From: a virus
Taxonomy: Duplodnaviria > Heunggongvirae > Uroviricota > Caudoviricetes
IMG/VR virus record: IMGVR_UViG_2534681604_000014
Span: 1 to 52,506 of that record
Length of the DNA stretch: 52,506 nucleotides
Reading direction: 5' to 3' (one strand)
The stretch's first letter is position 1. Each line of letters opens with the position of its first letter. Positions 1,858-24,100 of the stretch are shown piece by piece. Below the pieces are notes generated by a model that saw nothing but the letters and a program-made list of their open reading frames with translations, was not told the DNA's origin and did not search any database. Position numbers and translations under genes: made by a program.

Positions 1858-1858
1858 A

Positions 1859-1875
1859 ATTGCTCTAATGTATTG
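1859..1875 (+). promoter_or_regulatory. C1 operator-like 17-mer upstream of lpa
   Basis: ATTGCTCTAATGTATTG; matches the ATTGCTCTAAT core of the P1 C1 operator consensus ATTGCTCTAATAAATTT. Confidence 0.6.
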
Positions 1876-1945
1876 CTATTTATTTAATCGATGGTATTAT
1901 ATTCGACGTTGATTAGTTGACATGGGCTAATCAGTAGGTGACAGG

Positions 1946-2398: not shown

Positions 2399-2484
2399 TT
2401 GATTGCTTGCCCGTTCCGGGCCTTTTGACATGTGACTTTCGTTACCCTCGCGTCAAAAAGAGTTTTATACGAAAGGAAGCATAA

Positions 2485-3678: not shown

Positions 3679-5162
3679 TGGCCAGAAGTTGCGTAACGGA
3701 CCCACGTTGGCGCGAGCTGGTGGCGCTATATCGTTATGACTGGATTGCGGCCGCTGATGTTTTGTTCGGCAAAACACCTACCTGGCAGCAGGATCTGATT
3801 ATTGAGTCTGTGCAGGAACAGGGTAGCAAGACATCTGTTTCGTCTGGTCACGGTACCGGGAAATCAGACATGACTTCTATCATGATCATGTTGTTCATAA
3901 TCATGTATCCCGGTGCCCGCGCCATTATCGTTGCGAACAAAATTCAGCAGGTAATGACCGGTATTTTCAAGTACATCAAGATAAACTGGGCTACTGCCAC
4001 CAGCCGTTTTCCATGGCTTGCTGATTATTTTGTTCTGACAGAAACCGCTTTCTATGAGGTTACTGGTAAAGGGGTATGGACAGTTGTACCGAAGGGCTTT
4101 CGTCTGGGAAGTGAAGAAGCTCTCGCAGGTGAACACGCAGATCATCTTCTGTATATTATCGATGAAGCCTCCGGTGTCAGTGATAGAGCTTTCGGTATCA
4201 TCACCGGTGCTCTTACCGGACAGGATAACCGCATCTTATTGCTGTCACAGCCTACACGCCCAAGCGGCTATTTCTACGATACTCACCATAAACTGGCCAA
4301 GCGTCCTGGTAACCCTGATGGCGTTTATACGGCGATCACGCTTAACAGTGAGGAATCACCGCTGGTAACGCCAGCATTTATCAAAATGAAGCTGGCGGAG
4401 TACGGCGGGCGTGATAACCCTATGTACATGATTAAGGTACGCGGCCTATTCCCTAAATCACAGGATGGCTTCCTTCTTGGACGTGATGAGGTTGAACGCG
4501 CAACGCGGCGGAAAGTCAAGATTGCCAAAGGATGGGGCTGGCTTGCATGTGTGGACGTTGCTGGTGGTACGGGACGGGATAAGTCCGTTATCAATATCAT
4601 GATGGTGTCCGGCCAGCGAAATAAACGCCGTGTAATCAACTATCGAATACTGGAATACACAGACGTTACAGAAACGCAGCTTGCCGCCAAAATTTTCGCA
4701 GAATGTAATCCTGAGCGATTCCCAAATATCACCATAGCGATAGACGGCGATGGCCTGGGTAAAGCAACGGCGGATCTGATGTACGAGTATTATGGTATTA
4801 CCGTACAGCGTATACGCTGGGGTAAAAAGATGCATAGCCGTGAAGATAAGAGCCTGTACTTTGATAAACGTGCTTATGCCAACGTTCAAGCCGCAGAGGC
4901 CGTAAAATCTGGTCGTATGAGACTGGATAAGGGTAATGAAACTATTGAGGAAGCGTCGAAAATTCCTGTAGGGATTAACTCCGCAGGTCAATGGAAGGTG
5001 ATGAGTAAGGAGGATATGAAGAAAAAACTCAACCTGCACTCACCAGACCATTGGGATACATATTGTTTCGCTATGCTGGCGGATTATGTTCCCCAGGATG
5101 AAGTGCTTAGCGTCGAAGACGAAGCGCAGGTTGATGAAGCTCTGGCATGGCTTAATGAATGA
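3678..5162 (+). CDS. pacB: terminase large subunit PacB
   Basis: 494-aa ORF, start overlaps the pacA stop (TAATG); P-loop-like GHGTGKS. Confidence 0.95.
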
Positions 5163-5165
5163 ATA

Positions 5166-5182
5166 TTTGCTCTAATAAATTG
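5166..5182 (+). promoter_or_regulatory. C1 operator-like 17-mer
   Basis: TTTGCTCTAATAAATTG, 15 of 17 to consensus, immediately after the pacB stop. Confidence 0.6.
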
Positions 5183-5313
5183 TGTTTTTTAGCTACCGAT
5201 GTTACATTGAACCTGACCTCTTGCGCCTTGAGGCATTTTCGGTTTATGCTTATCAGGCACCTCATTAAAACGGGTGCCGGGATTGGAACCCCGGATAATG
5301 CAAAAGGCGACAC

Positions 5314-5337
5314 AGACGCCAAAAGCGTCTTTTTTTG
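5314..5337 (+). terminator. intrinsic terminator-like hairpin
   Basis: agacgc-caaaa-gcgtct followed by TTTTTTT. Confidence 0.6.
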
Positions 5338-5521
5338 TGTCATGCCATCGCACAGCCATACGTAGCACATAGCTCCGAGATCAATGGTAGTGCTGGCTGG
5401 GCTGCCGAAAGGCAGGCCGGTTCCCTTTTGCGCCGGTAGTTCCAACCCAGTCAGTGCTACCGCCATTGAGATTGGAACCTCACGCGGTAGCTCCTTAAGT
5501 TAGCAAAAGGAGGCTGCCATT

Positions 5522-5743
5522 ATGGCTACTATCCCTACCCCAACTCACCCTGAATTTATCTGGCGCTTTTACTCCTGCCAGAAACGTCACTATCACTTCG
5601 TTATCGCAACAACAGAAGATGAGGCCCGCTCTCAGCTTCCTGACGCCCCATGTATTTTCTCTGCCCGTTTTTCCACTGATTCACGCAATTCTCTCAGTTA
5701 CTGGTGTCTCCCTGTTAACGCTTCTGCTCAGGAGGGAGTATGA
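5522..5743 (+). CDS. small protein, icd-like (translationally coupled to antirepressor)
   Basis: 73-aa ORF; strong SD AAAGGAGG 8 nt upstream; 4-nt ATGA overlap with the next ORF; matches the P1 icd-ant layout. Confidence 0.5.
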   Translation: MATIPTPTHPEFIWRFYSCQKRHYHFVIATTEDEARSQLPDAPCIFSARFSTDSRNSLSYWCLPVNASAQEGV

Positions 5744-6855
5744 GAACGTCATTAGTCACCCGTGAAGAAATGATTGAGGCAATTGAACAGCACACAGCCT
5801 GTATCAGTACCAGGGATATACCGGGCGTTATTGCCAACTACTTCATGATCACCAAACAACTTTACCGGAGAAAGGACAAGAACGCGGTTCACCGCATTCT
5901 GCTAACCGATATCCGTGAATACCTGCTCGAACAGGGTCATCTGAATTACGCAACCGTCGCAGCCGAAGCACGCAAGGAGGCACACAGAATGAAAGCAACT
6001 AACGTTAAATCAGAAAAAATTCATGCAACTTCAGTTCAGGAATCAGAGCTGGTGGTTGTTCAGAATCAGTCTGATGAAATTCCCGTTCTGGAATGGCTGG
6101 GAGTGCGTGTAGTGACAACCAAGATCCTTGCTAAGGGGTATGGGACCGATGCGGATAACATCAAGAAGAACTTTTCCCGTAATGCCGAACGTTTTTGTGA
6201 AGGCAAGCATTTCTATAAAGTTATTGGAGATGATTTGAACAATTTGCGGGTGACTTTAAGTAACTCACAAAATCCCATCTCTCCTAAAGCCCGTTCACTC
6301 ATCCTCTGGACAGAACGCGGCGCTGCCCGTCACGCTAAAATGCTCGAAACCGATCAGGCATGGGCATTCTTTGAAAAACTGGAAGACAGCTACTTCCGGC
6401 AAAAAGAACAGCAACCGGTTGCAATCCCCCAAACATTACCAGAAGCCCTACGCCTGGCTGCCGAACTGGCTGAACAAAAGCAGCTTCTGGAACAGAAAGC
6501 CCACCAGCTAAATCAGCAGCTGGTAGCCGCCGCTCCTAAGGTCGATTTTGCCGACCGGGTATCAGTAGCTAAAGGGATCCTGATTGGGAATTTTGCAAAG
6601 GTTGTTGGACTTAAGCAAAACGCGCTGTTTGCCTGGTTACGGGAGAACGGCATCCTGATAGCGTCCGGCGGACGTAAAAATGTGCCATTCCAGCAGTACA
6701 TCAACGCCGGGTATTTCACTGTGAAAGAAGTGGTGCTAGATGATGAAGATGGCTACCAGATACGGCTGACGCCTCAATTAACGGGGAAAGGCCAGCAGTG
6801 GTTGACGCGTAAGCTGCTCGATGCTGGCTTGTTAAAACCGGTGGCGGCTGAATAA
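5740..6855 (+). CDS. antirepressor (AntA/ORF6N-like N-domain, KilAC-like C-domain), Ant1/Ant2-like
   Basis: 371 aa (about 42 kDa); internal in-frame ATG at 5989 with SD AAGGAGG gives 288 aa (about 32 kDa); C-terminal region looks like a KilAC/ANT domain. Confidence 0.65.
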   Translation: MRTSLVTREEMIEAIEQHTACISTRDIPGVIANYFMITKQLYRRKDKNAVHRILLTDIREYLLEQGHLNYATVAAEARKEAHRMKATNVKSEKIHATSVQESELVVVQNQSDEIPVLEWLGVRVVTTKILAKGYGTDADNIKKNFSRNAERFCEGKHFYKVIGDDLNNLRVTLSNSQNPISPKARSLILWTERGAARHAKMLETDQAWAFFEKLEDSYFRQKEQQPVAIPQTLPEALRLAAELAEQKQLLEQKAHQLNQQLVAAAPKVDFADRVSVAKGILIGNFAKVVGLKQNALFAWLRENGILIASGGRKNVPFQQYINAGYFTVKEVVLDDEDGYQIRLTPQLTGKGQQWLTRKLLDAGLLKPVAAE

Positions 6856-6887
6856 TGGAAGAATGCCCGGTTGATGCCGGGCATAAT

Positions 6888-7739
6888 TTATTGCGCGCTT
6901 TCGGGGTTGTCGTTTACTGGCTGCCCCTTCTTAGTTTTACGGCTGCGCGTAACTGATGCGGCTGACTTAACCTTTTTCTCTTCGCGAGTGATGGCAATTT
7001 GTTTTTTTACATTTTCAATATCTGCCAGGCGATATATTTTTGCCTGCGGCCAGCGGTCGCAGATGATCGGTTCTATGGAGTCATAAAGGCTAAATTTTGC
7101 TTTCTCGAATTCACCGTTGATGATGATTCCATCACGGAGAGTTTCATCGCAGATAAACACGCCACACAGCGGCACATGGTAACTAACTGATTTACCGTTA
7201 TTGTAGTTAGGACTACTGGAGATGTAGTGAACGCGCAGCATTGTTTCGCTAAAGCCGTGTACGCGCATACGGAATTTTTCATCCTCCGGGTACTGCTTCA
7301 TTAGCTCTTTTGTTGCTTCCAGGTTCTCTATGTATTTCGCACTGTGCTCATTGAACCCCGCGCTTTTTTGGATGCGAATGTCCTTATCAATCAGATGAAT
7401 AATGCGGCCAGCGGTCATGTTGACGCTGTTTACAGCTTCTGTCTGATAGGTCGTAACCTTACGCACACCGCGAAGGATGTTAGGCACAGGATATAAAATA
7501 GTCTTTGGGATATTGAGGTCTGGGTACTGTTCCAGTTCCCGCGCCATTAAAGTCCATTTATCAATTTCAGCCTGAATGCTGTCCGTTTCTTTGAACGGCA
7601 GAACGACAACCGGGCGTACAGGACGACCGTCGCTGGCGGCATCAACGTGTTGGGCGCGTGCAACAGCTTTTTTTAGAAAGAGATCCCTGAAGCTGACGAA
7701 CTCCTGGTACAGTTGTTCGCCGTAGACATAATTTATCAT
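6888..7739 (-). CDS. c1: C1 repressor of lysis
   Basis: 283-aa ORF recognised as P1 C1 (MINYVYGEQLYQEF...); strong SD GGAGGAGG upstream. Confidence 0.95.
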   Translation of the reverse strand: MINYVYGEQLYQEFVSFRDLFLKKAVARAQHVDAASDGRPVRPVVVLPFKETDSIQAEIDKWTLMARELEQYPDLNIPKTILYPVPNILRGVRKVTTYQTEAVNSVNMTAGRIIHLIDKDIRIQKSAGFNEHSAKYIENLEATKELMKQYPEDEKFRMRVHGFSETMLRVHYISSSPNYNNGKSVSYHVPLCGVFICDETLRDGIIINGEFEKAKFSLYDSIEPIICDRWPQAKIYRLADIENVKKQIAITREEKKVKSAASVTRSRKTKKGQPVNDNPESAQ

Positions 7740-7833
7740 TGATCCTCCTCCAGAATTGACATGGTCAATAACGCCCGGCTGAGAAAACCGGTCATTACTG
7801 ACCTATATTATAGAGGGAACAGACAAAAATAAT

Positions 7834-7850
7834 AGATTTATTAGTGCATT
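7834..7850 (-). promoter_or_regulatory. weak C1 operator-like site between c1 and coi
   Basis: AGATTTATTAGTGCATT, 14 of 17 to the reverse-complement consensus. Confidence 0.3.
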
Positions 7851-8059
7851 TATTGTGAGTCTAACTGGTTAGTTGCCATGAGATATTCGATTGTGTCAGT
7901 GAGATCATCCAGGTCGTCTGGGGTGATGCGGTACTCCTGATTGGATATCTTTGAGTAGTGTTCAGCAATGGCGCGAGCAGCGTCGGTTTCGGCGGGGTCT
8001 ACAGATAAAGCGTTAGAGCAATGTCTAACATCGTCGATGGTTGGTGGAATGAAAGCCAT
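7850..8059 (-). CDS. coi: Coi (C1 inactivator)
   Basis: 69-aa ORF directly upstream of c1 on the same strand, as in P1 ImmC. Confidence 0.8.
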   Translation of the reverse strand: MAFIPPTIDDVRHCSNALSVDPAETDAARAIAEHYSKISNQEYRITPDDLDDLTDTIEYLMATNQLDSQ

Positions 8060-8297
8060 AATTATGCCTCACTGTATTGACAACACAGAGCCTGAAGCTC
8101 TGACCTACTGTTTCACCCATGTTCCATGCTGGGGTTATCTATCAACATTGCGCTGTGTGTAAGATGAGCAATGCATAGCGATAATGCCGTTGTATAAGGT
8201 TTCCCTGTTTGCTCATTTCCTTCTGAGCCGCTCTACAACGCTGAAGACACATTAAGTAGTGAGTCCAAAGTCGTATTACGAAACGGCGGCAAAACTA

Positions 8298-8314
8298 TAA
8301 TTTATTAGAGCAAT
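8298..8314 (-). promoter_or_regulatory. C1 operator (Op99-like)
   Basis: Reverse complement is ATTGCTCTAATAAATTA, 16 of 17 to consensus. Confidence 0.75.
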
Positions 8315-8380
8315 TGTCAAACAACTATGAAAAACAATCCAGTATTTGGCTGGTGGAGTGGGATTTTTCTCTCAAATTTT

Positions 8381-8397
8381 ATTGCTCTAATAATTCT
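8381..8397 (+). promoter_or_regulatory. C1 operator (Op99-like)
   Basis: ATTGCTCTAATAATTCT, 15 of 17 to consensus. Confidence 0.65.
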
Positions 8398-8440
8398 TGA
8401 TTTTTATGCGCAGCTGGACGTAGACTCCTCTTCGGACCTA

Positions 8441-8474
8441 ATAGCTTCGTATAGCATACATTATACGAAGTTAT
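8441..8474. other. loxP-like Cre recombination site with one arm substitution
   Basis: ATAGCTTCGTATA-GCATACAT-TATACGAAGTTAT; canonical loxP arm is ATAACTTCGTATA, so one arm has G at position 4. Confidence 0.9.
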
Positions 8475-8572
8475 CTTAAGGGTTATTGAACATGATCAAT
8501 TTACCTGTAAATCCATACAGTTCAATACCTTATCAGGTCAAATAGTGATCACTTGATCATTTGATCAAGGTT

Positions 8573-8631
8573 GCGCTACGTAAAATCTGTGAAAAGTTGG
8601 CGGTGTTAGTCCTACAGATTTCGCGTAGCGC
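8573..8631. repeat. 18-bp imperfect inverted repeat (stem-loop) between loxP and the cre-side ORFs
   Basis: GCGCTACGTAAAATCTGT ... ACAGATTTCGCGTAGCGC, one mismatch, 23-nt spacer. Confidence 0.6.
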
Positions 8632-11498: not shown

Positions 11499-11687
11499 TA
11501 AATATATTATTTTTAATCTTAAATGATTGACAACTGACAAGTGACTTCAGTCAGAATCATCACACGCCCGGTACGGATGGATCCCTTTTCAAATATTCCA
11601 TGGACGGCACAGTCTGAGTACCGGGCGCTACCTTCAGTTGTATTGCTAAACCGCCGCGGGTGGCTTTTCTTTTTTGTAGGGGGCGCT

Positions 11688-12329
11688 ATGGATAAGAAAA
11701 TATGCGTTGTTTCGATGAGCGTCGGCAAACCGGCGTCAATGGCTGCTGCATGGATCAACAACGAGCTGATAATGGCTGAGCGGACCAGCTACCCTGAACG
11801 CCGCCGCGACATGGAACTCCAGCTGCTGCGCGAATTGCGAGAAAAAGAGGAAAAGGGTTTTATCGTGCTGGTGGAAGAGGAAAACAGCTTTATTACTGGT
11901 CGAGTTGGCCAGCGTGTAAGGTTGCGCGATCCCTTCATGAACGGCAGGCCGGTACTGATTGAAGCAATGCAGATTTACAAGGAGCTGGAACGCCAGAAAG
12001 CGATCAAGTTACCGCGCAAGGAATCCGGCAAATACATCCTCCACCAAAGCATCTTCGATTCCGAACACGATAAAAAAGGCGATGAATTTTTCAACATCAA
12101 CTGGAGTGAAATAACGACAGAGTATGTACTGACGTTACTATGTTGCTTTGCGACGGAATACAACAACGTTGCCAGCGCCGACTACATCAGGGCAATGGCT
12201 GGAGAAGTTGAGGCACGCCAGGAACCATCGTTACTAAGCCCTCTCATTAACATAATTCGGGGCACACAGAAACTTGCAGAAAAAAGAGTTCCTCATGGAA
12301 TCTTAACTGGAGAGGGGAACTATTTTTAA
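11688..12329 (+). CDS. mat: Mat-like protein
   Basis: 213 aa from ATG 11688 (MDKKICV...); lies between ref and res as P1 mat does. Confidence 0.5.
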   Translation: MDKKICVVSMSVGKPASMAAAWINNELIMAERTSYPERRRDMELQLLRELREKEEKGFIVLVEEENSFITGRVGQRVRLRDPFMNGRPVLIEAMQIYKELERQKAIKLPRKESGKYILHQSIFDSEHDKKGDEFFNINWSEITTEYVLTLLCCFATEYNNVASADYIRAMAGEVEARQEPSLLSPLINIIRGTQKLAEKRVPHGILTGEGNYF

Positions 12330-12370
12330 CGGCCTAAACGCCACTTCTTTCAGGTCGTGTAGGATGTCAA

Positions 12371-12394
12371 AAAAGGAGGTTTTCACCTCCTTTT
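12371..12394. terminator. bidirectional stem-loop between convergent mat and res
   Basis: 10-bp perfect stem AAAAGGAGGT / ACCTCCTTTT with loop TTTC. Confidence 0.6.
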
Positions 12395-12403
12395 AAACTA
12401 GAA

Positions 12404-15316
12404 TTATGGTAATGCGCTCTTGATTAACTGATAAATATCATCATTAGCAAACTGCGTTCTGAATTCAACTTTAACAGACTGACTTATTTGATTGAAAAGC
12501 GCTTGGGCATGTTCAATTTTCCGTTTTTCTTCAAGCCGTAAACTATCCTTACTATCTACGTTTTTTGTTTCAATGATAAAGTTAAGATAATCACCTTCCG
12601 CTGTTTTTACAACATAAGCAAAATCGGGTGAGTAAGTGTATCCACCAGCTACCGGGATCTTAATAGAATTCTTCGGTATCTTTGAAAAAACAACAACAGA
12701 CTGGATCTCTCTATCTGTTATATTACGCCTTTCAAGCTCTGAATCATAAAAAACTTCTTCAAAAAGATAAGTATCTAATGGTGCTTTTGCATTATCCTGC
12801 AATACACCAAGATCACTTGATAATACCTCGCCTAGAGGATTACCATCAGCATTTGTGAACTTTGTAGGATGAATTGAACCCGAAATCAAATTATATCCGA
12901 GGCTGAATTTGTTAAACGAATTGTGCAACAAATACTTACTAAAACCAGATTTAATTTTTCTGATTGTTTGAATATTAAGGTATTCAGTGATATTAATAGT
13001 GTCTTTTATATCACAAAAAACTTTATGTAAAGTACCGTGTTTAACAAAAATAGTTTGTGATAAGTTATCGAGAAACTCTCGATAGCTCATTGTGTTTAGC
13101 TTAGCAAAGTCATCGTCATCACTGACAATGCTTTTCGACATTGCCATATCATTGTGGATGTAAATTTTATCAATGCGAGTATGAACGCCTGATTTGGTAA
13201 ATCGTTCTGTTTCTTCGAGCATGAATGACTTGAAAATGGATAAAAATTCACTTTCACTGTTTATTTTGTACTCAATCACCGCTTTTTGATTGATCAAATC
13301 CCATAGTTCTTTCAGCTCACTGAACTTACCAACACGCATTTTAGTGCGTCTTTTTCCATCAGTAGCTTTTTTGATTTTACCAGGTTTCACTCCTATAGGG
13401 AATGCTGCTGGATATTTGGATTTTAAGCGGCTATAGGCATCTGAATCTTTGAAATTATCATTGTCATCAATGATTTCATCATTGAAAAGTTCATTCATTA
13501 GTGCTCTGGATGAAAGCTCAGGATACTGAGCCCTGATTTGTTCCTTAAGCTCTTGAGTAAACTTACTTGGAACCCTTTCTTTGAAAGAACTCTCGTTGAC
13601 CTCTTTAACAAGTGAGTCAACAAAATCCTTTTCTGTAAAATCAACATAATATTTAAGGGTAAAATTGCGGTCTTTCACTCGACACATGTATTCATTCACA
13701 GGAAGACGCAAACCGCGCCCTACCTCTTGAAGCTTAGATGTGGTACTACCGCTCGAACGGAGCTTACAGATCTGAAAGACATTAGGATTATCCCACCCCT
13801 CACGCAACGTCCATTTTGAGAAAATAAACCGACGGGGATTATCTAAAGACAGCAAAAGCTCTTTGTCATGAAGGATTTCGTTGATTTCCTGCTCGATTTT
13901 ATCATCCTTATCACTGTTATCTTTTGAGAAATAACCACCATGAACGGAAGATATATTTTTGACTGTTTTTTCAAGATAGTTTTTATAAAACGCATCATGC
14001 TCTGTTTTTAACAGTTCATTAGCTTCTGCCAGAACGTATTCTTCGAATTTGGTCTTCAGGCTTCCGGCAATATCATTACCGTCACGATAGCCTTCAATAT
14101 CGTCAATAAAGAAAAGAGTAAGAGGCTTTATGCGTGGCCTTTGTGTCAGAAGTTCTTTTTCTAACTTAAAGTGTTCTTTGACAGCCTTACGCATCATGTT
14201 ATCAGCGAGTGTCTGATCGTAAGAATAGGGATTTATTGAGCTACCAATCTTCAACTCAATACCATTACTCAACACTGCTGTGCTCTTGTTTAAAGCATCA
14301 AGAGTTAAATCATGGATCGCACTATGCGTCTTAGACAGCGATTCACCTTTAGCTAACTTAAACGATTTTTTTTTGTTGTTTTCATTCAGTTCAAATGTAG
14401 CTTCCTTTCCGTCAGATTTGACGAATTTGAGGTTTGCGTTACCATCGCCGACTATATCCTCAATATATGCATCAATACCTTTAACGAGATCTTCGTTAAA
14501 TGCGTCCACGGCTGTAAGACGATAAACCAGGTTCTTATAGCCTTCGCTAAAGGTTGCGCCATAGCGGATAATATATTGTGCGTTAAATTTCTCTATGTTT
14601 TCCCATGTTTTTTTACCAGTAGGAAATCTATGTGGTTCGTCAATGATGATAAATGGTTTTACAGCTCTGAGCGCGTCAACTGGAGTATTAAACTGATTAT
14701 CAAGCAAGCCAGTATCGTAAGTATCCGTTAAAGACTTAGAGTTGATCATTCCTGAGTTAATAACAAGAACGTGTATATATTTTTTATTGAAGTTACTTGC
14801 TTCAACAAAATCATGTATAGCCTGAGGCATATACGATTTTGTATTTTTGCCAGAGTTTTTCTGACTTTCAACAACGTAAGTTCTCAGCTCACGCTCGTAA
14901 TCATCCCGGAAATGTTCTTTTAAAGCATCACTTTTTAAAAAGTTAACGGTTCCGGCCTTGATAGATAGAGTCGGAACAATGATGATAAACTTGTTAATAC
15001 CAAATGATTTATTCAGGTCAAAAATAGTTTTGGTATAGGTGTACGTCTTGCCTGTACCTGTCTCCATAGAAACATCAATGATGTTGCTTTTAGCATTGTG
15101 ATTATCTTTTGAGTGCGCAATACCATTGAACGCCTGAACATTTTTTATATTGTTGTAGTATTGTTGTTCAGACAGCTTCAGTTCTGGATTAGCTAAAAGG
15201 CGAACAGCAACATTATCCGTCAGGTGAGGTGTTGCGGAAACAAAAACATTCATCACCGCATCGACTCCTGCTTTCTGATGCGGCAAGTTCTTTTCGAGAG
15301 TGAACCCTTTTGACAT
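12404..15316 (-). CDS. res: type III restriction enzyme Res subunit
   Basis: 970 aa; helicase Walker A GTGKT, motif II DEPH, C-terminal PD-(D/E)xK-like YSPDF...IIETK; low GC. Confidence 0.9.
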   Translation of the reverse strand: MSKGFTLEKNLPHQKAGVDAVMNVFVSATPHLTDNVAVRLLANPELKLSEQQYYNNIKNVQAFNGIAHSKDNHNAKSNIIDVSMETGTGKTYTYTKTIFDLNKSFGINKFIIIVPTLSIKAGTVNFLKSDALKEHFRDDYERELRTYVVESQKNSGKNTKSYMPQAIHDFVEASNFNKKYIHVLVINSGMINSKSLTDTYDTGLLDNQFNTPVDALRAVKPFIIIDEPHRFPTGKKTWENIEKFNAQYIIRYGATFSEGYKNLVYRLTAVDAFNEDLVKGIDAYIEDIVGDGNANLKFVKSDGKEATFELNENNKKKSFKLAKGESLSKTHSAIHDLTLDALNKSTAVLSNGIELKIGSSINPYSYDQTLADNMMRKAVKEHFKLEKELLTQRPRIKPLTLFFIDDIEGYRDGNDIAGSLKTKFEEYVLAEANELLKTEHDAFYKNYLEKTVKNISSVHGGYFSKDNSDKDDKIEQEINEILHDKELLLSLDNPRRFIFSKWTLREGWDNPNVFQICKLRSSGSTTSKLQEVGRGLRLPVNEYMCRVKDRNFTLKYYVDFTEKDFVDSLVKEVNESSFKERVPSKFTQELKEQIRAQYPELSSRALMNELFNDEIIDDNDNFKDSDAYSRLKSKYPAAFPIGVKPGKIKKATDGKRRTKMRVGKFSELKELWDLINQKAVIEYKINSESEFLSIFKSFMLEETERFTKSGVHTRIDKIYIHNDMAMSKSIVSDDDDFAKLNTMSYREFLDNLSQTIFVKHGTLHKVFCDIKDTINITEYLNIQTIRKIKSGFSKYLLHNSFNKFSLGYNLISGSIHPTKFTNADGNPLGEVLSSDLGVLQDNAKAPLDTYLFEEVFYDSELERRNITDREIQSVVVFSKIPKNSIKIPVAGGYTYSPDFAYVVKTAEGDYLNFIIETKNVDSKDSLRLEEKRKIEHAQALFNQISQSVKVEFRTQFANDDIYQLIKSALP

Positions 15317-15318
15317 GA

Positions 15319-17256
15319 TTAGTTCCTCACCACCAAATCTAACTCAATAGATTTTTTATTAGCATAACTTTTCAGGGCTTCATTGAGTTCCATTTGTTTT
15401 GCGCTATCAAAATTACAGCCATAAAACACAACTTTGTGTGGTGCAAAGTCTTTGTCTGAATCCAGCTTTTGAAGTAATGCTTTCAGTGCTTCGCTGGTAA
15501 AATTAGTTTCGATCAAATACAAACGACTATCGCACAAATGTGCTTTGTAGCCACTAAGATCAACATCTTTAATCGGTGTTGTTAGCAGGCTGCCATCATA
15601 CAGACACCATGTAGTCAATAAGGCATCATACTGTTCAGGAGTTAATACTACATCATCAAAGAATGTATGATTAGACAGCGTAAGTTCTGACTCATCTTTG
15701 ATGCGAAAATCTGTCATTAATTGGTAAATTTTAAAGCCAAACTTACCGCTTCCCTCACAAACTCTAATTAATCTTTCTTTGGTTAGGTCATAAATGGTTT
15801 TAAAACCATGCTTAAAAGCGTCAGAATTATCTTTTGTATCCTCATCTAATTGAACAGTTATGAATTGATAATTCATGCCTTTTTCTTTGTTTAAGTTTAA
15901 AATAGCATGCGCTGTTGTACCCGAACCTGCAAAAAAATCCAATACAATACCTTTGCCATCACATGCAAAAGAGATCAATTCTTCAAGTAGTTTAATGGTT
16001 TTAGGGTTAGTGAAAGGCTTAGTCATTTCAGGGAAAATTGCTTTTAGCTCATTAGCCCCGGCTCGACCATCAATATTAATAACAGAACTTAACTTCTGCT
16101 TATAATCTTTAGCATAAACCTTTATTTCCACTAATTTATTTTCATCTTCACCAAAGATAATCCGCCCATCATCAATCATTTTTAGCATAGTAGCTTCAGG
16201 GAAGCGATATCCCATCAAAGGCTGCTTGCAAGGTTTCTTTGTTATTGGATGAATAATATCATACCGATATCCTTCTTTACCGGGGTTATGAATCCCCCTC
16301 TCCCCAGAATATACACCTTTACGGTCTATAAACTTATAATTTTCCAGAGGCCATAATTGACTTTTGTTTTCTCTAAACCACTTTGTGTACTCTTCCTGTA
16401 ATTTTTCGTCATCTTTTATGTCATTAATTAATGAATCGCCTACTTCAACAAGCAAATCCTTTACATCTGAGATGTTTGACTTCCACTCAGTTTCAATTAA
16501 TTCTTTATTTCTAGCATAAACAACAATATATTCATGTTCTACAGCAATGTTCGAAGGATTGTTATCTGTAACATTTTTCCAGACGATGTCTCCGATGTGA
16601 TTTTGTTCACCAAAAATCTCATCGCAAACTAGCTTTAATTGACTAAACTCATTGTCATCAATAGAAATAAAAATAGTCCCATCTTCTCTCATTAATTCAC
16701 GAGCAATATAAAGGCGTGGGTAAATGAATGTCAGCCATGCACTATGACTGCTTGACCCCTTGGTGGTAAATTCTAATATGCGTTTAGCCTCATCGAGGTC
16801 GATGCCTGCTAGTTCAGAAAGCTGCTCAGGTGTAAATTTGCGATCATCATTATAAACGAACCCATCCTTACCTGTATTGTATGGTGGGTCAATGTAAATC
16901 ATCTTCACCTTTTCAGCGTAAGCATTAACCATATGCTTCAATACTTCGAGATTATCCCCTTTGATTAACAGGTGTTGACTGTTCTTGTTCTCTTCTTGTT
17001 GGTTATGAGTTTTATCTTCTGCCAACAACGTTTTCGGTGGTAGATTGGCCAACAAACGGGCATAAGATTTACCCAGCCAGTTCAAGCTGTATGATTCTTT
17101 AGAGAGTTCAACTTCCGATGCCCTAATAATCTCAAGCAATTTTTCTTGAATGAAGGCTCCGTTTTTATCAAAACACTGAGGGAAATTAGCTTTCAACACA
17201 GCCAGTTGCTTGCTGTTAGCCGTTTCTACTTCGGAAAAAATCGTTTCTTTTTTCAT
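15319..17256 (-). CDS. mod: type III Mod N6-adenine methyltransferase
   Basis: 645 aa from ATG 17256 (MKKETIF...); DPPY motif before the FAGSGTT motif (beta-class order); an upstream in-frame ATG at 17277 is possible. Confidence 0.9.
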   Translation of the reverse strand: MKKETIFSEVETANSKQLAVLKANFPQCFDKNGAFIQEKLLEIIRASEVELSKESYSLNWLGKSYARLLANLPPKTLLAEDKTHNQQEENKNSQHLLIKGDNLEVLKHMVNAYAEKVKMIYIDPPYNTGKDGFVYNDDRKFTPEQLSELAGIDLDEAKRILEFTTKGSSSHSAWLTFIYPRLYIARELMREDGTIFISIDDNEFSQLKLVCDEIFGEQNHIGDIVWKNVTDNNPSNIAVEHEYIVVYARNKELIETEWKSNISDVKDLLVEVGDSLINDIKDDEKLQEEYTKWFRENKSQLWPLENYKFIDRKGVYSGERGIHNPGKEGYRYDIIHPITKKPCKQPLMGYRFPEATMLKMIDDGRIIFGEDENKLVEIKVYAKDYKQKLSSVINIDGRAGANELKAIFPEMTKPFTNPKTIKLLEELISFACDGKGIVLDFFAGSGTTAHAILNLNKEKGMNYQFITVQLDEDTKDNSDAFKHGFKTIYDLTKERLIRVCEGSGKFGFKIYQLMTDFRIKDESELTLSNHTFFDDVVLTPEQYDALLTTWCLYDGSLLTTPIKDVDLSGYKAHLCDSRLYLIETNFTSEALKALLQKLDSDKDFAPHKVVFYGCNFDSAKQMELNEALKSYANKKSIELDLVVRN

Positions 17257-17421
17257 ATCCATTTTAAACCAGATCATTTAGCAACAAAGCGCCGCCTCCC
17301 CAGCCCACTAGAGCCAGAAGTTGTCACACTTATACGAGGGCACTATCACTATCTATATGTTTGAATAATCGTTTTTCTTTGAGCGATGCTCGGCGAGCAA
17401 ACAGCCATAATTTGGGGAAGT

Positions 17422-17670
17422 TTAATCCGCATTGAGAAGCAATGCATTATCTATGATGATCTGCTCCCATTCTTCGAATGCCCGATCGCGGACCCCCTGG
17501 GGAACACTGTTTGTTTTGAAATCAACGACTGTCCGCCATTTCCCGTCCGGACGGTACATGCGCAGAGCTTTACTGCCCCCTTCCCTTCGCACCTCAACGT
17601 TATGCTTGTCAGCAAACTCTTGTAATGCTCGTAGCGTCCCATGCTTTACTGTGTAGTATCGCTTTTTCAA
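17422..17670 (-). CDS. lxc: Lxc/Bof C1 co-repressor
   Basis: 82-aa ORF (MKKRYYTVKHG...) upstream of ulx-darB as in P1. Confidence 0.65.
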   Translation of the reverse strand: MKKRYYTVKHGTLRALQEFADKHNVEVRREGGSKALRMYRPDGKWRTVVDFKTNSVPQGVRDRAFEEWEQIIIDNALLLNAD

Positions 17671-18107
17671 GTTTTCTCTCCAGCCTGTGCCAAGGCTTCA
17701 ACTTCCAAATCGTAAGACTCAAACTCATAGTCTTGGTCGTCAACTTCTTCAGGCACTGGCAGTAAATGCCAGGCTGAGTATATCTGACCATTATCAAAAC
17801 GCTCCTGGCTGTAGAGCGTCGCGGCTATGAGTGTTAGCGCCGGGCGGTCATAACGGTAAATTTTGCGAACGTCACGGTCAACGAGACGACCGAAATTACC
17901 ATAACCGCGCTCCAGTAATAATTTTTTAATTTCCGGCCAGTATGGGCCATAGCTGCGGTACAGGCGGGGATTTTTAAGCAATCGCCCGCGTAGCCCTGAC
18001 AGGAAGAAATCAACGTATTCGTCTTCTGTCTTTCCTAACAACGCCGTACGCAGTACCGCCTCAAGATATGTTTTATTCGGTTTTATTGTATCAGATAGTG
18101 TGGACAT
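17667..18107 (-). CDS. ulx: Ulx
   Basis: 146-aa ORF between darB and lxc; 4-nt overlap with lxc. Confidence 0.6.
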   Translation of the reverse strand: MSTLSDTIKPNKTYLEAVLRTALLGKTEDEYVDFFLSGLRGRLLKNPRLYRSYGPYWPEIKKLLLERGYGNFGRLVDRDVRKIYRYDRPALTLIAATLYSQERFDNGQIYSAWHLLPVPEEVDDQDYEFESYDLEVEALAQAGEKT

Positions 18108-18140: not shown

Positions 18141-21100
18141 TTATGCGTATTGTTGGATGACGGCCAGAACGTCCGCCACGTTGTGTTTTGTCTCGATAAT
18201 CCACCAGTTACCCGGGAAATCGCTGTTCTTCGCCTTCGCTGGCAGCCAGCGAGCGCCGAATTTCGCCTTGATTGCGTCTTTCGCACGGAAAAGAATGCCT
18301 TTCATGCCGGACGCCTCCTGAAGCCCAAATACCTCGCCAGCGGCGAATTTTGGTGCGTACATCATCTTCAGGTCGGCGGTGGATACGCGATAATTCAGCC
18401 CAAGAGACTGAGCTATGCTGGTGGCATCACCCTGTATTGATGATAACTCTTCTTGTTTCTCGTTTCTGGCGGCAATTTCTTCCTCCGTGATGTTGCCTAG
18501 GGCCAGGTTTATCCGATCAGCGTCGGCCTGTTTCTCTTCATCGGTGCGTCCGGCAAGAACCGTGTTAATTCTCTGCAATATCTCCACATGATTCTTGCGC
18601 ATGCTGAGCAATTCCGGCGTAACCTCGTTAAGGTCCACCAGCCCAAGGATGGCAAGGTCGGAAAACATTGATACCAGGTTGTAGGTCATGCGATAGCTGA
18701 GTTGGCCATAGGCTGATGGCAACTGCACCGAATCCATTTTATAGGCATCCATAAATTTAGAGCCGTCGTTTACGACTTCCGCAATTGCAGGTGTGATTTT
18801 CCCTGTGGTGGCGGCCTCCCTGATTGCTGTTACCCACGATTGAGTCAGCGCGGCGACTGCATGATTCAGATTGGCTTTCCGTTCTGCTGCAATGCGCGCG
18901 CTTGCAGCGTCCATTGCCTGCTTGATCTCGTCTTTATTGCTGTAAATGCCAATGGTGCCAAACTGTGCTGTGGTGATCTCAAAGTCTGACGCCCGGAACT
19001 CATTAATACCGAAAATGGCATTGGTGACCTCAAGTTCAGAATCACCGTTACGGGTAGCCCCCTGGCTTGTTTTCTCCGGCATTCTGGCGATCGCATCCGC
19101 TATTTTCTCCTGAATTGCTTCAGGGGATAGCGTATCTCCGTATGACGCGATTACATCGCCATAATTGGAGCCAAACAGTTCAGTCAGGAATACTTCTGCC
19201 AAACGGACCTGGCGGTTATTCCCTTCCGACATCATACCAAGCACCCATTTAGCAATTGACGACTTCAGGGCGCCGTCACGGCGATCCGGATAAACCGCAT
19301 GCTTCAGCGGGTCCGTATAGGTACCAACAAAATCAATGCTGTAGCCTGACTCTGTAGTCTGAACGCCGTATGAGTCAGTGATTTTGATCATGCCGCGCTG
19401 CTGGAAACGGTAGAAATCGTCACAGGAAATGATGTCGTTAATCCCGGCGATGGAGACGCCACCACTGATTTTCTGCATAACAGCATCTTCATCGGGAGTT
19501 ACATCCACCTGTTTATCCAGCGTCTTCACATCCCAGTTACCCGATTTGGTACCTTTGAAGGTAAAGATAATCTCCACGTCTGCGCGCTGGCTGTCGAAGT
19601 CCAGCGACTTAATGCGAACGATATCACCGGCACAATCGTAGTATTGGCCTACACGCCATGAGCGATCGCCGATAACAAGGAACTCATTCGCATGGTTAAC
19701 CAGATCAGGATCAACATCCAGAATGCCTTTATTTATTGCATCCTCCACCAGCGGGCGCAGGCGTTTGATATCCGTCGCGGCCTTCTGAGTACGGTTCAAT
19801 AATTTCTCATAACGGGAGATGGCCTGAGAGATATTAGCCTTGCGCTGAATGGCGCTTTTCAACGACGCGCGATACTGTGCTAACAACGTACGGTCTGTGT
19901 GATGGACGCTACCCCAGCGGGCCTTCCAGTCTGCGTTATCAGCTGCTTTGGCCATTGCCGCCTGTTTGAATTTAGCTACCTCGGCGGTGGTCTTTTCAAG
20001 TTCCGCTTTGCTTCGCTCTAATTCAGCGGTAAGTACCTCCACATCCTCGCCAGCTGCGTGCTGCGCCTTGATGTAGTTCTGAAGGTCGATAGTAGCCTGT
20101 TCTTTCTGGCGAGCGCGTTGCGCGGCTTTCGCCTTATCCATTTGAACCTGCATCATTGCCAGACGTTCGCCGTCATCCTTCGCGGTATACATCTGCATTT
20201 CGATCATGTCATTGGCGTCGGCGTTCTCCATTTCTGACTTATCTGAACGGAGGATATCGGAGATCCAGCCTGCTTTACGCTTCAGCGTCTTCAGTCGGTA
20301 TTCATCGAAAGAACCCTTGCCGCAGTAGTAGTGAACGCGAACGCTTGCACGGTTGGAGCCAACTCGGGCACCGCGACCGTTTCGTTGCGCAATACTGGCT
20401 GGAGTCCATGGCAACGTCAGATGATGGATGTCAGTCGTTCCTCGATGCAGGTTGATACCCACCTCTGCCTTTTTGTTGCAGATGATGATCGGAGTCCGGC
20501 CCTCCTGGAAGTCGGCTGCAATCTTTTCCAGACCGCCCAACGACATTTCATTTTGCTGCGCGATATAGGCGTCATACAGAGCCATTTGCTCGTTGTATTT
20601 CGCTATCTGTGCATCTGTTGGTTCATCCGATAACTCTTTCGGCGGTTTAACCGCTTTCAGTTTCTTACCGGTTTTACCTGCCTCGGCAACCGTCTGAGCA
20701 TTCAGGATCCCCACCTTTGAAGGTTCAAGGTTAAGAGCATTGCAGATAATGCGCTTGAGTTTCTGGTGCTGCGTTTTTTCGTCCGTGAAGATGATTTGCT
20801 TACCTTCCGGGAAAAACTCCTTCAGCGTGGCGATCAGCTTCGCGTATTTGGGTGTAACGGGGTGAGTTACGGTCTGTTCGTCAATGCCAAACCTGGCCAG
20901 GCGCTTATTCACTTCCTGCTCGAACGCTTCCGGAACCTGCAACTGAATAAACTCGCCCTTATCTATCAGGGAGTATTGCGATTGCTGCGTGATTGAATCA
21001 TCACTGTCGTCGTCTTCGCTGGTGGCTTGTTTAGGCAAACTGTCCGCCAGCTGCTGCACCGCATCGGCGTACTCCGGCAGGAAACGATAGGTGATCCGGC

Positions 21101-24100
21101 GATAGTACAGGTCCATGTCAGTACATACGCGGTCCATATCCCTGATTATTGAGAAGATCGGACGGGCTTTCTCGTGCTCAATCACGCCGTCTTCATTGAC
21201 CGAGGTCGTTACGCCATTGTTGGCTTTTGCTGCCGCTTCCGCCTGCTGACGCAATTCTTCATACGCCGCCAGTTGTTCTTCAGTAAGTGGTGCATCCTGC
21301 TGGTGTTCGTCCAGTTCCGGGATCTCCACGGTATCCTTAACGTCTTCCGCCGTTTTAAGCGTTGTCCAGCGATGGAATATGCCGCGCAGCGCATCAAGGT
21401 TTTCAAAACCCACCAGCGCCATTTTTTCTTCAACTTCACCGCTGATTTTCTGTACCGTTTCCAGCCTGGTCTTGCCGAAGAATTTAACGAAGTCATCAGG
21501 ACCGTAGATCCCCATCTTCTGCCAGTATTCCTTCGGCAGAACATGAGAAAGCATGTTGTATGCATCGATCGGGGTGTTAACGACTGGCGTTGCAGTCAGG
21601 AGAACCGGTCCGCGCCCGCCATTCTTTTTCATCAGGTACGCGTTTTTGATTGCCATATCTCGCGCCGATTGCGCCACCGCGCTGGTGGGCAGATAGGCCA
21701 GCTGTGACGCTTCGCGACCATTTTTATAGCTATTGCGGTAGTTGTGGCCTTCGTCAGCAATCACGCTGTCGAAGCCCATATCCTCAAAGTACGGATACTT
21801 CTCTGCTTTTTCGGTACCGGTATCTGAATACTCCGACAATACCCGGCGACGCGCCGCCTCTTTGCGGTGGGAGTCGGAGTCCATTGCGCTGGCTACGCGC
21901 CCGGCAGCAACGAAGTCATAAAGCATATCCTGTGCATGCTCATCTACGGTGTCATCACGTAGCGGAATGCGGGCGTATTGTTCTTTGGTAAACACGACTG
22001 CACGGTAATTTGAGTGCGGGATCGCATTCATCCGCGCCGTGATAGTGGCTTCATCTGCCAGTTTAAGGGCATCGCGCATAACTGGAGTACCATCAGTACC
22101 AAGAACAGGTTTACCGTTCTCATCGAGCACCGGCACCTGGCGAATCTGATCGCTGTCCATCAGTACATCCAGACCGACGAACAGGTAGTTACTGAAGGCT
22201 TCTTCACTCAGGAACTCTTTTGCTTCGTAATACCAGTTTTCCAGCACTGATTTAGGCACTACATAAGCAGTACGGGTGGAGCGACCGTTCTCATAGTTGA
22301 ACGCCTCAAGCGCCAGCGCGGTCGTGGTTTTACCCAGCCCGGTACCGAAGCCCAGGATGCCGCGCCCATCTTCGGACAGTCTGCGCACCTCGCTATTCTG
22401 GTAATCAAATGGCTGTCGCTTACCGCTTAATCCCTTCAACCCAAGCGGATCGCCAGAGTGTTCATACGGGATATTGCTATTGAAAACATCGTTGTATTTG
22501 GCAACCAGCTCATCGTAGCGATCGTGCGTCTTGATCCACTTATTGAACTGGTCCTCAAGCAGTGCCATCTGCTCGCGGTAGCCGTTCGCCGTCGCGCTAT
22601 CTTTTCCACCGATACGCGCACCATTGAGATACTTTTCCAGCTGTGCCGGGAACCCGGTCGCGTTTTCACCTGATTTACGGTCCCACTCGTAGCGGATCTC
22701 GCCTGTTTCTTTATCCTTGCGCTGGACGACACCGTATCGGTGCCCGACGAACAGACCATCACCACCGTGATAGGTGTCAGAAACCATTTCGTCGCCTTCC
22801 AGCTGCACTGACTGCACATAGCGCAGATCCGGATAGCCGTTTTCCTGCAAAAACTCCAGAATGACGGAGCGGTCGAACCAACGGCTATTGAGCTTAAAGC
22901 GGATATTCTCTGCTGGCGTCTTGATGCGCTTCTCTTCGATCGCTGCCAGCTGATTAAGGACGTTGTTCTTTACTGGACCGTCGGGGAGTGTGGCAAGGAA
23001 TTCCTGTTTTGGAGCCACTATCTCGTTAATGTCGCCGCTGGTGGCGCGGGCGAACGGAACAATCCCGCCATACGGTGAAACCGCAATACCAGGGGTGCTG
23101 GCCAATAAATTAAGCAACTCTTCATCACTGGCTGGCAGTTCGCCGGTAAACGCAAGGCGGAAATCATCGAGCTGGATTGGATCGCGGGTAAGATCGCTAT
23201 AGAGATAACGCAGGGTGTCCTGATAGCTGGTGGAGTCATAACTGGCGCTGGAATCATGCGTAACCAGCTTTCCTGTCAGCTCGTCAGAAATAGTGCCATC
23301 CAGCTTAATTGCACCACGGAAAGCAAACCAGGCGCGCGCACCGCTTCCCGATAATTTAGCTATCGGACCGCGACCGGGGTTACCAAAACGGTCAATCTCT
23401 GCCTGCAAACGGGATACCAGAGAAAGGCGCTGCTGTTCGATTTGTTCAGCACTATGCCCGGCGGCCTTCATGTCCTGATATTCAATTAACATCCGGCCAA
23501 TCATCGCCCCGCGATACAAGCGTTCACGGTATTTTTCAGGCTGGCTGTTAATCCAGTCCACCAGCTGCACCATATCGTCGCTGATTGATGTGGTGTACTT
23601 ATCGCGGACATTTGCCATCTGGGTAAATGTCATACCGAGACGGCCTTCTGTTGTAGTCAGGTTACGCTGAAGAGCCTCCCAGCTATCCGCGCCATAACTG
23701 GCAGCATCAATCTTAAGCTCCTTACCAGCATCAGCTTCAATCCAGCGACCACCAGCATATTTTTGCCATACGCCATTAATCAGGCGCATTTCCCCTTCAT
23801 CAACAACATCTGCGGTCGGTGACGGTTCAGCCATATCGAGCAAAGACCAGTCGATACGACTTTCGAAACGATGAATCAGCTTCGCTTTAAGAGCCTGGTT
23901 ATCAATCTGCCCGTCGGCACGAACCTCAATACGCCCCTGGAATCCCTTCTCCTGGGTGCCATGAACAAACCGGCGGCCGTCCTTTTCAAACCACTTGCCA
24001 GAAATAAACGTTGGCCAAAGCACATTTGCCGATTCAAGAGTGCTTTTATCCACCAGGGGGATTTTCTCAGCCATCTCTGCCGAATGTTTGCGCATCAGCA

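Follow-up and report, generated by a model that had tools for sequence, protein, structure and literature searches.

An EcoP15I-like type III restriction-modification operon with a divergent Mod recognition domain in the mat-lxc slot of a P1-like phage-plasmid

The DNA analysed here, hereafter called the window, is a 52,506-nt stretch assigned to a Caudoviricetes virus (IMG/VR record IMGVR_UViG_2534681604_000014), and it is 100% identical to scaffold GL870861.1 of Escherichia fergusonii B253. It contains an intact, ordinary type III restriction-modification (R-M) gene pair, res and mod, on a P1-like phage-plasmid. To the left of the pair lies mat (11541-12329, plus strand; the start equivalent to that of P1 is the ATG at 11577), and to the right lies a minus-strand block (17422-18107) composed of lxc (17422-17670) and ulx (17667-18107), with darB (18141-24908) as the next gene. 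The names of these right-flank genes are taken from the aligned P1 and P7 records. Since the flanks align with both of these phages, the mat-lxc placement in a P1-like element, proposed in an earlier note on this DNA, is borne out. The window also holds a C4 antisense RNA and ORFs of the size of P1 cre (343 aa) and darB (2255 aa). The res-mod pair forms the lowest-GC 4.9-kb stretch within the window, with a GC fraction of 0.364 vs 0.476 in the remainder, in keeping with the note's description of a GC content markedly below that of the backbone.

The spacer between mod and lxc (17257-17421, minus strand) carries the mod leader and promoter region and has no insertion sequence. Its full length can be aligned to P1, P7 and a P15-type plasmid, and the sole difference is a 14-bp segment that is present in the window and in the P15-type plasmid but missing from P1 and P7. 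The P1 record annotates the promoters P1mod and P2mod in the counterpart of this spacer. The lxc stop (17422) is 144 nt from the first ATG of mod (17277) and 165 nt from the MKKE start, so the spacing of about 145 bp given earlier holds when it is measured from the first ATG. The absence of IS1 from the spacer, also noted earlier, is correct for the window, but it does not distinguish the window from P1, as P1, P7 and P15-type plasmids share the short spacer. Contrary to the earlier note, reference P1 does not have IS1 next to res-mod. In the P1 record AF234172, an IS5 is inserted within mod (the mod749::IS5 allele) and nothing lies between mod and lxc; the IS1 of P1 is at 22626-23393, between isaA and isaB and about 13 kb from mod.

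The mat and res genes converge on a hairpin (12371-12394, assigned to neither strand), a perfect 10-bp stem with a 4-nt loop whose inverted repeat arms are at 12371-12380 and 12385-12394, just as the earlier reading of a bidirectional hairpin had it. When folded as RNA, the res strand gives -16 kcal/mol (z = -3.9, with 0 of 200 shuffled sequences as good) and the mat strand gives -14 kcal/mol. The hairpin probably serves as an intrinsic terminator, with greater strength on the res strand. It is not special to the window: P1, the P15-type plasmid and the E. albertii plasmid pEA40_1 have an identical one, and a linear element of Klebsiella shares the GGAGG/CCTCC stem but not the loop.

The res gene (12404-15316, minus strand) encodes a protein of 970 aa composed of an SF2 helicase-like ATPase and a C-terminal PD-(D/E)xK nuclease. 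Pfam assigns ResIII to aa 61-257 and RE_endonuc to aa 849-954, and PADLOC identifies the protein as REase_III (1684 bits). The helicase and nuclease motifs that had been reported for a 970-aa Res can all be located: the Walker A sequence TGTGKT (aa 86-91; 15044-15061), DEPH (aa 226-229; 14630-14641), PDFAY (12614-12628, in which PD is aa 897-898) and IETK (aa 915-918; 12563-12574). Motif VI, QEVGRGLR, is present as well. Res is 99.0% identical to EcoP15I Res (PDB 4ZCF chain C; 960 of 970 residues, with 10 differences), all of its helicase and nuclease motifs are unchanged relative to that protein, and it is 93% identical to EcoP1I Res.

The mod gene (15319-17256, minus strand) encodes the modification and recognition subunit, a protein of 645 aa when counted from the MKKETIF start at 17256, which is the start used for EcoP1I and EcoP15I. 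Starts at two further in-frame ATGs, 17262 and 17277, would yield proteins of 647 and 652 aa, respectively, and the ORF from the first ATG is thus 15319-17277. The best match of Mod to a solved structure is EcoP15I Mod (4zcf_A), to which it aligns end to end with 84% identity overall. Pfam finds N6_N4_Mtase and T3RM_EcoP15I_C (114.8 bits) in it, and PADLOC calls it MTase_III (766 bits). Motif IV, DPPY (aa 123-126; 16879-16890), precedes motif I, FAGSG (aa 442-446; 15919-15933), with the target-recognition domain (TRD) between them. This is the β-class motif order, and it agrees with the earlier description of a 645-aa Mod with DPPY before FxGxG. The res gene begins 2 nt past mod on the same strand, as it does in P1. 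Thus, the locus has the make-up of a type III system, in which mod, encoding a β-class N6-adenine methyltransferase (MTase) with an internal TRD, is adjacent to and co-oriented with a following res, whose product fuses an SF2 helicase-like ATPase to a C-terminal PD-(D/E)xK nuclease. Its assignment to the EcoP1I/EcoP15I family, made in the earlier note, is supported alike by Pfam, PADLOC and the alignment of Mod to 4ZCF.

Relative to its closest known relatives, mod is a mosaic. A sliding 150-bp identity calculation over a MAFFT alignment delimits a diverged block (15340-16725, minus strand) in which DNA identity to the EcoP15I-type plasmid pMB3362_2 is 62-92%; in the flanking res gene and mod 5' end it is 98-100%. 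The pMB3362_2 Mod is 100% identical to the 4ZCF Mod over aa 216-520. In this plasmid, as in the window, 2 nt separate mod from res, the genes have the same order, and the hairpin of res and the leader of mod, with its 14-bp segment, are the same. At the protein level, aa 1-215 of Mod are 99.5% identical to EcoP15I and 94.4% to EcoP1I, and aa 521-645 are 92% and 88% identical, respectively. In contrast, aa 216-520 are only 69.5% identical to EcoP15I and 24% to EcoP1I. By domain, identity to EcoP15I is 100% in the N-terminal domain (NTD), 94.5% in the N-terminal MTase part, 62.6% in the TRD, 70.9% in the C-terminal MTase part and 90.6% in the C-terminal domain (CTD).

The same comparison sets the window apart from EcoP1I and from the P7 system (annotated EcoP7). 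These share with it the mat-lxc locus, the kind of phage-plasmid, the hairpin, the closely related Res and the Mod ends, but the centre of Mod is unrelated, with a TRD identity of about 15%, in the manner of the classic "non-homologous middle third". Accordingly, megablast against P1 and P7 leaves central mod unaligned (85% coverage in two pieces). Mod is thus far from being EcoP1I Mod throughout, with 58% identity overall, and the expectation that its recognition region would differ from the reference is upheld. The different specificities of EcoP1I and EcoP15I are themselves set by the non-homologous middle of mod (PMC3874151). With a near-identical Res, conserved Mod termini, an EcoP15I-type CTD and a variable centre, the system belongs to the EcoP1I/EcoP15I subfamily. 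Within that subfamily, the sequence comparisons identify it as being of the EcoP15I-type chassis specifically, rather than a generic relative of EcoP15I and EcoP1I.

The diverged block also bears on whether the operon might be a decayed or silent remnant, with Res unexpressed or with Mod serving as a Mod-only epigenetic module. The internal res promoters annotated in P1, P2res and P3res, map inside this block, and the -35 hexamer mapped for P3res, judged by eye, is not kept in the window. Furthermore, a promoter/terminator consensus scan found σ70-like sites no more often than in shuffled sequence, a scan that did not list the mat/res hairpin either. However, neither ORF is truncated or interrupted by a frameshift or stop, and Tandem Repeats Finder (minimum score 30) detects no simple-sequence repeat tract, a sign of phasevarions, in 12300-17450. 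The catalytic motifs are all intact, and upstream of mod the leader and promoter region is conserved in both P1 and P15-type elements, save for the 14-bp segment, which the window shares with the P15-type plasmid. As res starts 2 nt after mod, read-through transcription is possible. Finally, the identical protein pair is found on many independent contigs. A remnant is therefore very improbable.

The TRD (16102-16470, minus strand) comprises Mod aa 263-385, corresponding to aa 263-384 of EcoP15I, with boundaries taken from PMC4490356. The alignment of this region to EcoP15I and EcoP1I, which the earlier note had proposed as a check, shows that the 62.6% identity to EcoP15I is unevenly spread, at 47% in the proximal lobe, which has a one-residue insertion, and 71% in the distal lobe. 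In EcoP15I, R305 and R350 are base contacts that read guanines (PMC7544214). The second is retained in the window as R351, but Asn306 (codon at 16339-16341, minus strand) occupies the position of Arg305. A second difference is the loop SGERGI (aa 317-322; 16291-16308, minus strand), which lies directly before the HNPGKEGYRYD loop and replaces TGSQSV of EcoP15I. In the 4ZCF structure, Pro324, located in the loop adjoining this segment, contacts the orphan thymine (PMC4490356). The contact comparison was limited to residues named in the text of the two papers: N232, N233, P324, N416, K418 and DPPY (PMC4490356), and R305 and R350 (PMC7544214). Within this set, the window retains D123-Y126, N232, N233, P324, R350, N416 and K418, and with them the catalytic and adenine-pocket residues; R305 is the sole loss. 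The window TRD is consequently neither equivalent to that of EcoP15I, base-reading residues included, nor homologous to that of EcoP1I.

To what extent these changes matter can be judged from the pattern among relatives. A full-length Mod search of a collection of 5.8 billion proteins, followed by alignment, yielded 119 close homologues. (A TRD-only search of the same collection returned only matches of at most 538 aa and missed the query's own cluster, and is unusable as a census.) Across the 119 homologues, the residue at the Arg305 position co-varies with TRD type, and segments 303-307 and 316-321 form discrete combinations. LDRYK with TGSQSV is retained in 38 representatives, even where TRD identity to EcoP15I is down to 55%; LENYK with SGERG, the window type, is present in 26 representatives, Vibrio included. 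Such discrete combinations are the pattern expected of specificity determinants.

EcoP15I, of plasmid p15B of E. coli 15T-, recognizes CAGCAG, and EcoP1I, of phage P1, recognizes AGACC. One could argue that the window system is plain EcoP15I, with CAGCAG as its site, and that the TRD differences are neutral drift. The 99% identity of Res and the near-identity of the Mod N-terminus would fit, as would the two longest TRD loops, HNPGKEGYRYD and KKPCKQPLMGYRF, which are identical to those of EcoP15I, together with R350, P324, N232 and N233. However, drift does not readily account for a TRD at 62.6% next to 94-100% in the NTD and the N-terminal MTase half and 99% in Res. The sharp DNA breakpoint on the 5' side of mod indicates replacement instead, and the guanine reader R305 is Asn. 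In addition, TRDs that have drifted to 55% still have LDRYK and TGSQSV, whereas the window lineage consistently has LENYK and SGERG. Identity with EcoP15I thus appears unlikely. Given the Asn at the Arg305 position and the discrete residue and loop types, the recognition sequence is probably not CAGCAG; most likely, it would differ from CAGCAG at one of the two C:G pairs. The earlier note held that the specificity could not be read from sequence alone, but a TRD lineage that has lost the guanine-reading Arg305 is informative about it. Counts of the known sites are uninformative on specificity: CAGCAG occurs 15 times on the plus and 21 times on the minus strand of the window and AGACC 26 and 25 times, with no avoidance or strand bias for either.

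The allele is not confined to the window. Identical Mod proteins are present on at least 15 contigs, all in a cre-c8-ref-mat-res-mod-lxc context, which suggests that the allele is maintained rather than being a one-off error. Four E. albertii plasmids, pEA40_1 and three sisters, encode exactly this TRD (100% identity); unlike the window, pEA40_1 has an IS481-family transposase gene in place of mat. Over aa 216-520, E. coli pCUPF12A is 99.3% identical to the window Mod, and its EcoP15I-like CTD, 91% identical to that of the window, points to further mosaicism. The chromosomal copy of E. coli 2013C-3033 is 91.8% identical over the same residues but, unlike the window system, resides among conjugation-type genes (TraF, ArdC) rather than in a P1-like element. 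Among plasmids in PLSDB, 4 carry the window type, 11 the EcoP15I type and about 6 a fourth type; the other res-mod carriers have no TRD match and are only presumed to be of the EcoP1I type.

It is also conceivable that the allele has been characterised before, as an enzyme whose site is known, such as PstII of Providencia stuartii. P0151, a Mod from a P. stuartii chromosome, is 92% identical to the window Mod. However, PstII methylates the top strand at CTGATG (PMC6868433), and its Mod, at 63.7 kDa, has been described (PMC4005696) as "more distantly related" to EcoP15I; P0151 has 647 aa, or about 74 kDa by comparison with EcoP15I Mod (644 aa, 74.1 kDa). On the basis of Mod size and this distant relation, the identity with PstII through P0151, and with it CTGATG, was rejected. 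No paper in the library searched cites any of six accession numbers of the Mod allele, and the Klebsiella, Salmonella and STEC methylome papers examined do not mention a comparable type III enzyme. It is therefore quite improbable that the allele has been characterised under another name. GATCAG, considered as a Salmonella type III motif, was likewise discarded, as the literature gives GATCAG to the BREX/StySA PglX methylase.

Two-site, ATP-dependent cleavage and one-strand hemimethylation are established for EcoP15I (PMC4490356, PMC3874151). From the 84-99% identity to this solved and characterised enzyme, we infer a similar activity and mechanism for the window system. A Mod dimer would bind a short asymmetric site, with one protomer reading the bases through its TRD and the other flipping out one adenine and methylating it at N6, on one strand only. 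On an unmethylated site, a Mod2Res1 complex would hydrolyse ATP and then switch to sliding on the DNA; on encountering another complex, bound to a site in inverse orientation, it would cut about 25-27 bp from one of the sites. The ~1.4-kb mod block, which spans the TRD together with the C-terminal half of the MTase core, would represent a separate TRD lineage set on an otherwise EcoP15I-identical chassis. Taken together, the evidence argues strongly for a functional type III operon that belongs to the EcoP15I subfamily, occupies the variable slot between mat and lxc of a P1-like phage-plasmid and has a Mod TRD from a separate lineage; its site would probably be related to, but not identical to, CAGCAG. 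A bolder proposal, that the LENYK/SGERG lineage gives a recognition sequence of no characterised type III enzyme on a near-EcoP15I Res and Mod chassis, is put forward tentatively, as a possibility that we would not presently favour.

Type III systems with exchangeable Mod recognition regions at the P1 locus have been textbook knowledge since the 1980s. The window system is an uncharacterised allele within this familiar kind of system, and GenBank already lists it by a generic name; the exact Res/Mod protein pair has been there since the E. fergusonii B253 draft genome, and the practical import is small. Its Mod nevertheless carries a rare, uncharacterised DNA-recognition domain, and the window illustrates how P1-like elements shuffle Mod alleles. 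It amounts to a natural experiment, in which the EcoP15I chassis bears a TRD of another lineage that has a substitution at one of the two arginines published as guanine readers, and the site of its Mod would be a clean data point on how specificity is encoded in type III and β-class TRDs. If the LENYK/SGERG site proves to be new, the system would be a natural one-domain specificity swap for reading this code, and the change of Arg305 to Asn would be a candidate for the single determinant of specificity. The system might also add an enzyme with an EcoP15I-like reach of 25-27 bp and, if the site is new, possibly a second tag-generating enzyme with the long cleavage reach of EcoP15I.

[quoted passage not shown] Translation from the MKKETIF start at 17256, the start used by both EcoP1I and EcoP15I, gives a Mod of 645 aa. 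To the left lies mat (11541/11577-12329, plus strand); to the right lie lxc (17422-17670), ulx (17667-18107), and darB (18141-24908), all on the minus strand. These flanking genes are named after their counterparts in aligned P1 and P7 records. Overall, the window resembles a P1-like phage-plasmid: ORFs of 343 aa and 2255 aa correspond in size to P1 cre and darB, and Rfam matches to isrK (5257-5335) and the C4 antisense RNA (5380-5467), both features of the P1-type immI region, confirm the P1-like identity. Positions 12200-17625 are 100% identical to Escherichia fergusonii B253 scaffold GL870861.1, and the exact proteins are present in GenBank as EGC05093.1/WP_000637768.1 (Mod) and EGC05092.1/WP_000033407.1 (Res).

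The type III assignment made in the earlier note agrees with both the Pfam domains (N6_N4_Mtase, T3RM_EcoP15I_C, ResIII, and RE_endonuc) and the PADLOC families (MTase_III and REase_III). The motifs it described are also in place: the 970-aa Res carries helicase motifs (TGTGKT, aa 86-91; DEPH, aa 226-229) and a nuclease motif (PD, aa 897-898; ExK, aa 916-918), and in the 645-aa Mod, DPPY (aa 123-126) precedes FAGSG (aa 442-446). The low GC content is likewise borne out (0.364 in res-mod vs 0.476 elsewhere), and res-mod is the lowest-GC 4.9-kb stretch of the window. The res-mod region shows no repeat tract and hence nothing to suggest phase variation.

Of its 970 residues, Res shares all but 10 with EcoP15I Res (PDB 4ZCF, chain C), and the 10 substitutions lie outside the helicase and nuclease motifs; its identity to EcoP1I Res is 93%. 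Mod aligns with EcoP15I Mod from end to end, but the identity is uneven by domain. Within the boundaries of Gupta et al. 2015 (PMC4490356), it is 100% in the NTD, 94.5% in the N-terminal MTase half, 62.6% in the target-recognition domain (TRD; 47% in the proximal lobe and 71% in the distal lobe), 70.9% in the C-terminal MTase half, and 90.6% in the CTD. A Mod identical to EcoP1I throughout, the outcome that would have left nothing new at this locus, is not what is seen, as the TRD is only ~15% identical to that of EcoP1I. Compared as DNA, pMB3362_2, an EcoP15I-type plasmid whose Mod central region (aa 216-520) is 100% identical to the 4ZCF Mod, matches res and the mod 5' end at 98-100% identity, a figure that falls to 62-92% within a block at ~15340-16725. 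Such a mosaic is the classical pattern for the EcoP1I/EcoP15I family, in which mod is conserved at both ends and owes its specificity to the middle (Iida 1983 and Hümbelin 1988, related in PMC3874151).

Contact residues were compared for the few EcoP15I positions named in paper texts. These are the adenine pocket (DPPY, N416, and K418) and the residues that hold the orphan thymine (N232, N233, and P324), as described in PMC4490356, together with Arg305 and Arg350, which PMC7544214 describes as readers of non-target-strand guanines. All are kept in the window Mod except Arg305, which is replaced by Asn306. In an alignment of 119 close homologues, each representing one 90%-identity cluster, segments 303-307 and 316-321 form discrete combinations. 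LDRYK with TGSQSV, the EcoP15I type (38 representatives), is retained even where the TRD is only 55% identical to EcoP15I. LENYK with SGERG, the type found in the window (26 representatives), extends from Escherichia to Vibrio; LE[DN]YK with AGLRG is present in 21 representatives and the SKHYN/NKHYS types in 31. Fixed against a diverging background and switching jointly between types, these segments look, from the alignment, like specificity determinants. A changed site is therefore more likely than not, and the enzyme probably recognizes a sequence other than CAGCAG, with either of its two C:G pairs the most probable place of change. Recognition of an unchanged CAGCAG would be consistent with Arg350 and with both long TRD loops, which are the same as in EcoP15I, and set against it is the behavior of the signature segments, which favors a changed site.

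The Mod falls in a 90%-identity cluster of 137 proteins drawn from Escherichia, Salmonella, and Klebsiella, and the identical Mod is present on at least 15 contigs, every one in a cre-c8-ref-mat-res-mod-lxc context. In PLSDB, the window TRD occurs at 100% identity in four plasmids, all from E. albertii of wild birds; the EcoP15I-type TRD occurs in 11 and a fourth type in ~6. Megablast of the TRD DNA against 5,426 complete E. coli genomes gives matches in 3, on a plasmid in one case (99.3%) and on the chromosome in the other two (~89%), and no record in the phage collection carries either the window TRD or the EcoP15I-type TRD. A protein search with the TRD alone returned matches of no more than 538 aa and did not recover the 645-652-aa cluster to which the query belongs; full-length relatives may be under-reported by sub-domain queries in such a search. 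The literature search yielded no paper that gives the allele a recognition sequence. A Providencia stuartii Mod, 92% identical, was considered as PstII and rejected; the Mod of PstII has a mass of 63.7 kDa and is a more distant relative.

The E. coli 2013C-3033 chromosome (NZ_CP027323.1) carries, at 3698-8577, a res-mod pair of the window's TRD type, whose Mod central region is 91.8% identical to that of the window. Its neighbors are conjugation and anti-restriction genes (ArdC and TraF), and it apparently sits on an integrative element. Given this chromosomal copy, the allele passes from one type of mobile element to another. On its left, the slot is variable: res is adjoined by an IS481-family transposase gene in E. 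albertii pEA40_1, by a SIR2-family gene in E. coli pE2865-1, and by EAL-domain and HTH genes in E. albertii pEA18_2. In these three plasmids the right side is without ulx and darB, and the portal gene comes next after lxc. The slot of several phage records holds a RelA/SpoT-family gene and no res-mod. In some contigs with the identical Mod (L013, L014, and L019), darB is truncated or split, with products of 1035, 798+257, and 799+257 aa vs 2255 aa; L013 and L014 also have a ParE-toxin gene pair upstream of darB. An EcoP15I-type res-mod, with a TRD ~90% identical to EcoP15I, is located at 1492-6347 of K. pneumoniae AR_0109 plasmid unnamed1, a 42.2-kb record that is annotated linear and is not P1-like, and members of the window Mod cluster lie on many ~41-kb Salmonella and Klebsiella contigs. 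These ~41-42-kb records may constitute a second phage-plasmid family sharing the res-mod cassette.

The perfect 10-bp hairpin reported earlier at the mat/res junction is present at 12371-12394. Folded as RNA, it reaches -16 kcal/mol on the res strand, with none of 200 shuffles as good, and -14 kcal/mol on the mat strand. An identical hairpin is found in P1, the EcoP15I-type plasmid, and pEA40_1, and so it is not specific to the window. In pEA40_1 it is still present with the transposase gene at the expected place of mat, and in a linear element from Klebsiella the GGAGG/CCTCC stem is unchanged but the loop differs. Since the hairpin recurs across these elements, it travels with res, and it is best read as the terminator of res.

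The contrast with reference P1 drawn in the earlier note, in which an IS1 adjoins res-mod, is spurious. In P1 (AF234172) there is instead an IS5 inside mod ('mod749::IS5'), the mod-lxc interval is empty, and the IS1 is located at 22626-23393, flanked by isaA and isaB. The window mod-lxc spacer aligns end to end with those of P1, P7, and P15-type plasmids, and the sole difference is a 14-bp segment common to the window and the EcoP15I-type plasmid pMB3362_2. This segment, CTCGTATAAGTGTG (mod strand; window 17320-17333), lies in the mod leader/promoter region; pEA40_1 has it with one base changed, and neither P1 nor P7 has it. At 52176-52198, ~330 bp from the window end, the sequence exactly matches the IS1 terminal inverted repeat (GGTGATGCTGCCAACTTACTGAT). 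As none is expected by chance in the window, the element does contain an IS1 end, but one ~35 kb from res-mod.

Positions equivalent to P2res and P3res, the annotated internal res promoters of P1, fall at ~15750-15815, inside the diverged (replaced) block of mod, and the -35 hexamer of P3res, as mapped, is by eye not conserved in the window. Thus, transcription of res may come from read-through of the conserved mod promoters, from the P1res region, or from both.

From its homology to EcoP15I (PMC4490356, PMC11142916), a Mod2Res1 complex would bind an asymmetric site, with one Mod protomer reading the site through its TRD and the other flipping and methylating the target adenine. If the DNA is unmethylated, Res would hydrolyse ATP and so release the complex into one-dimensional sliding, and an encounter with a second complex, bound at an inverted site, would trigger cleavage ~25-27 bp away. 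Within a P1-like prophage, an R-M system of this kind would be expected to shield the lysogen from incoming unmodified DNA and to help retain the plasmid in the cell line. The system is otherwise ordinary; its single modestly interesting feature is the allele itself, a rare, uncharacterised TRD on an EcoP15I chassis.
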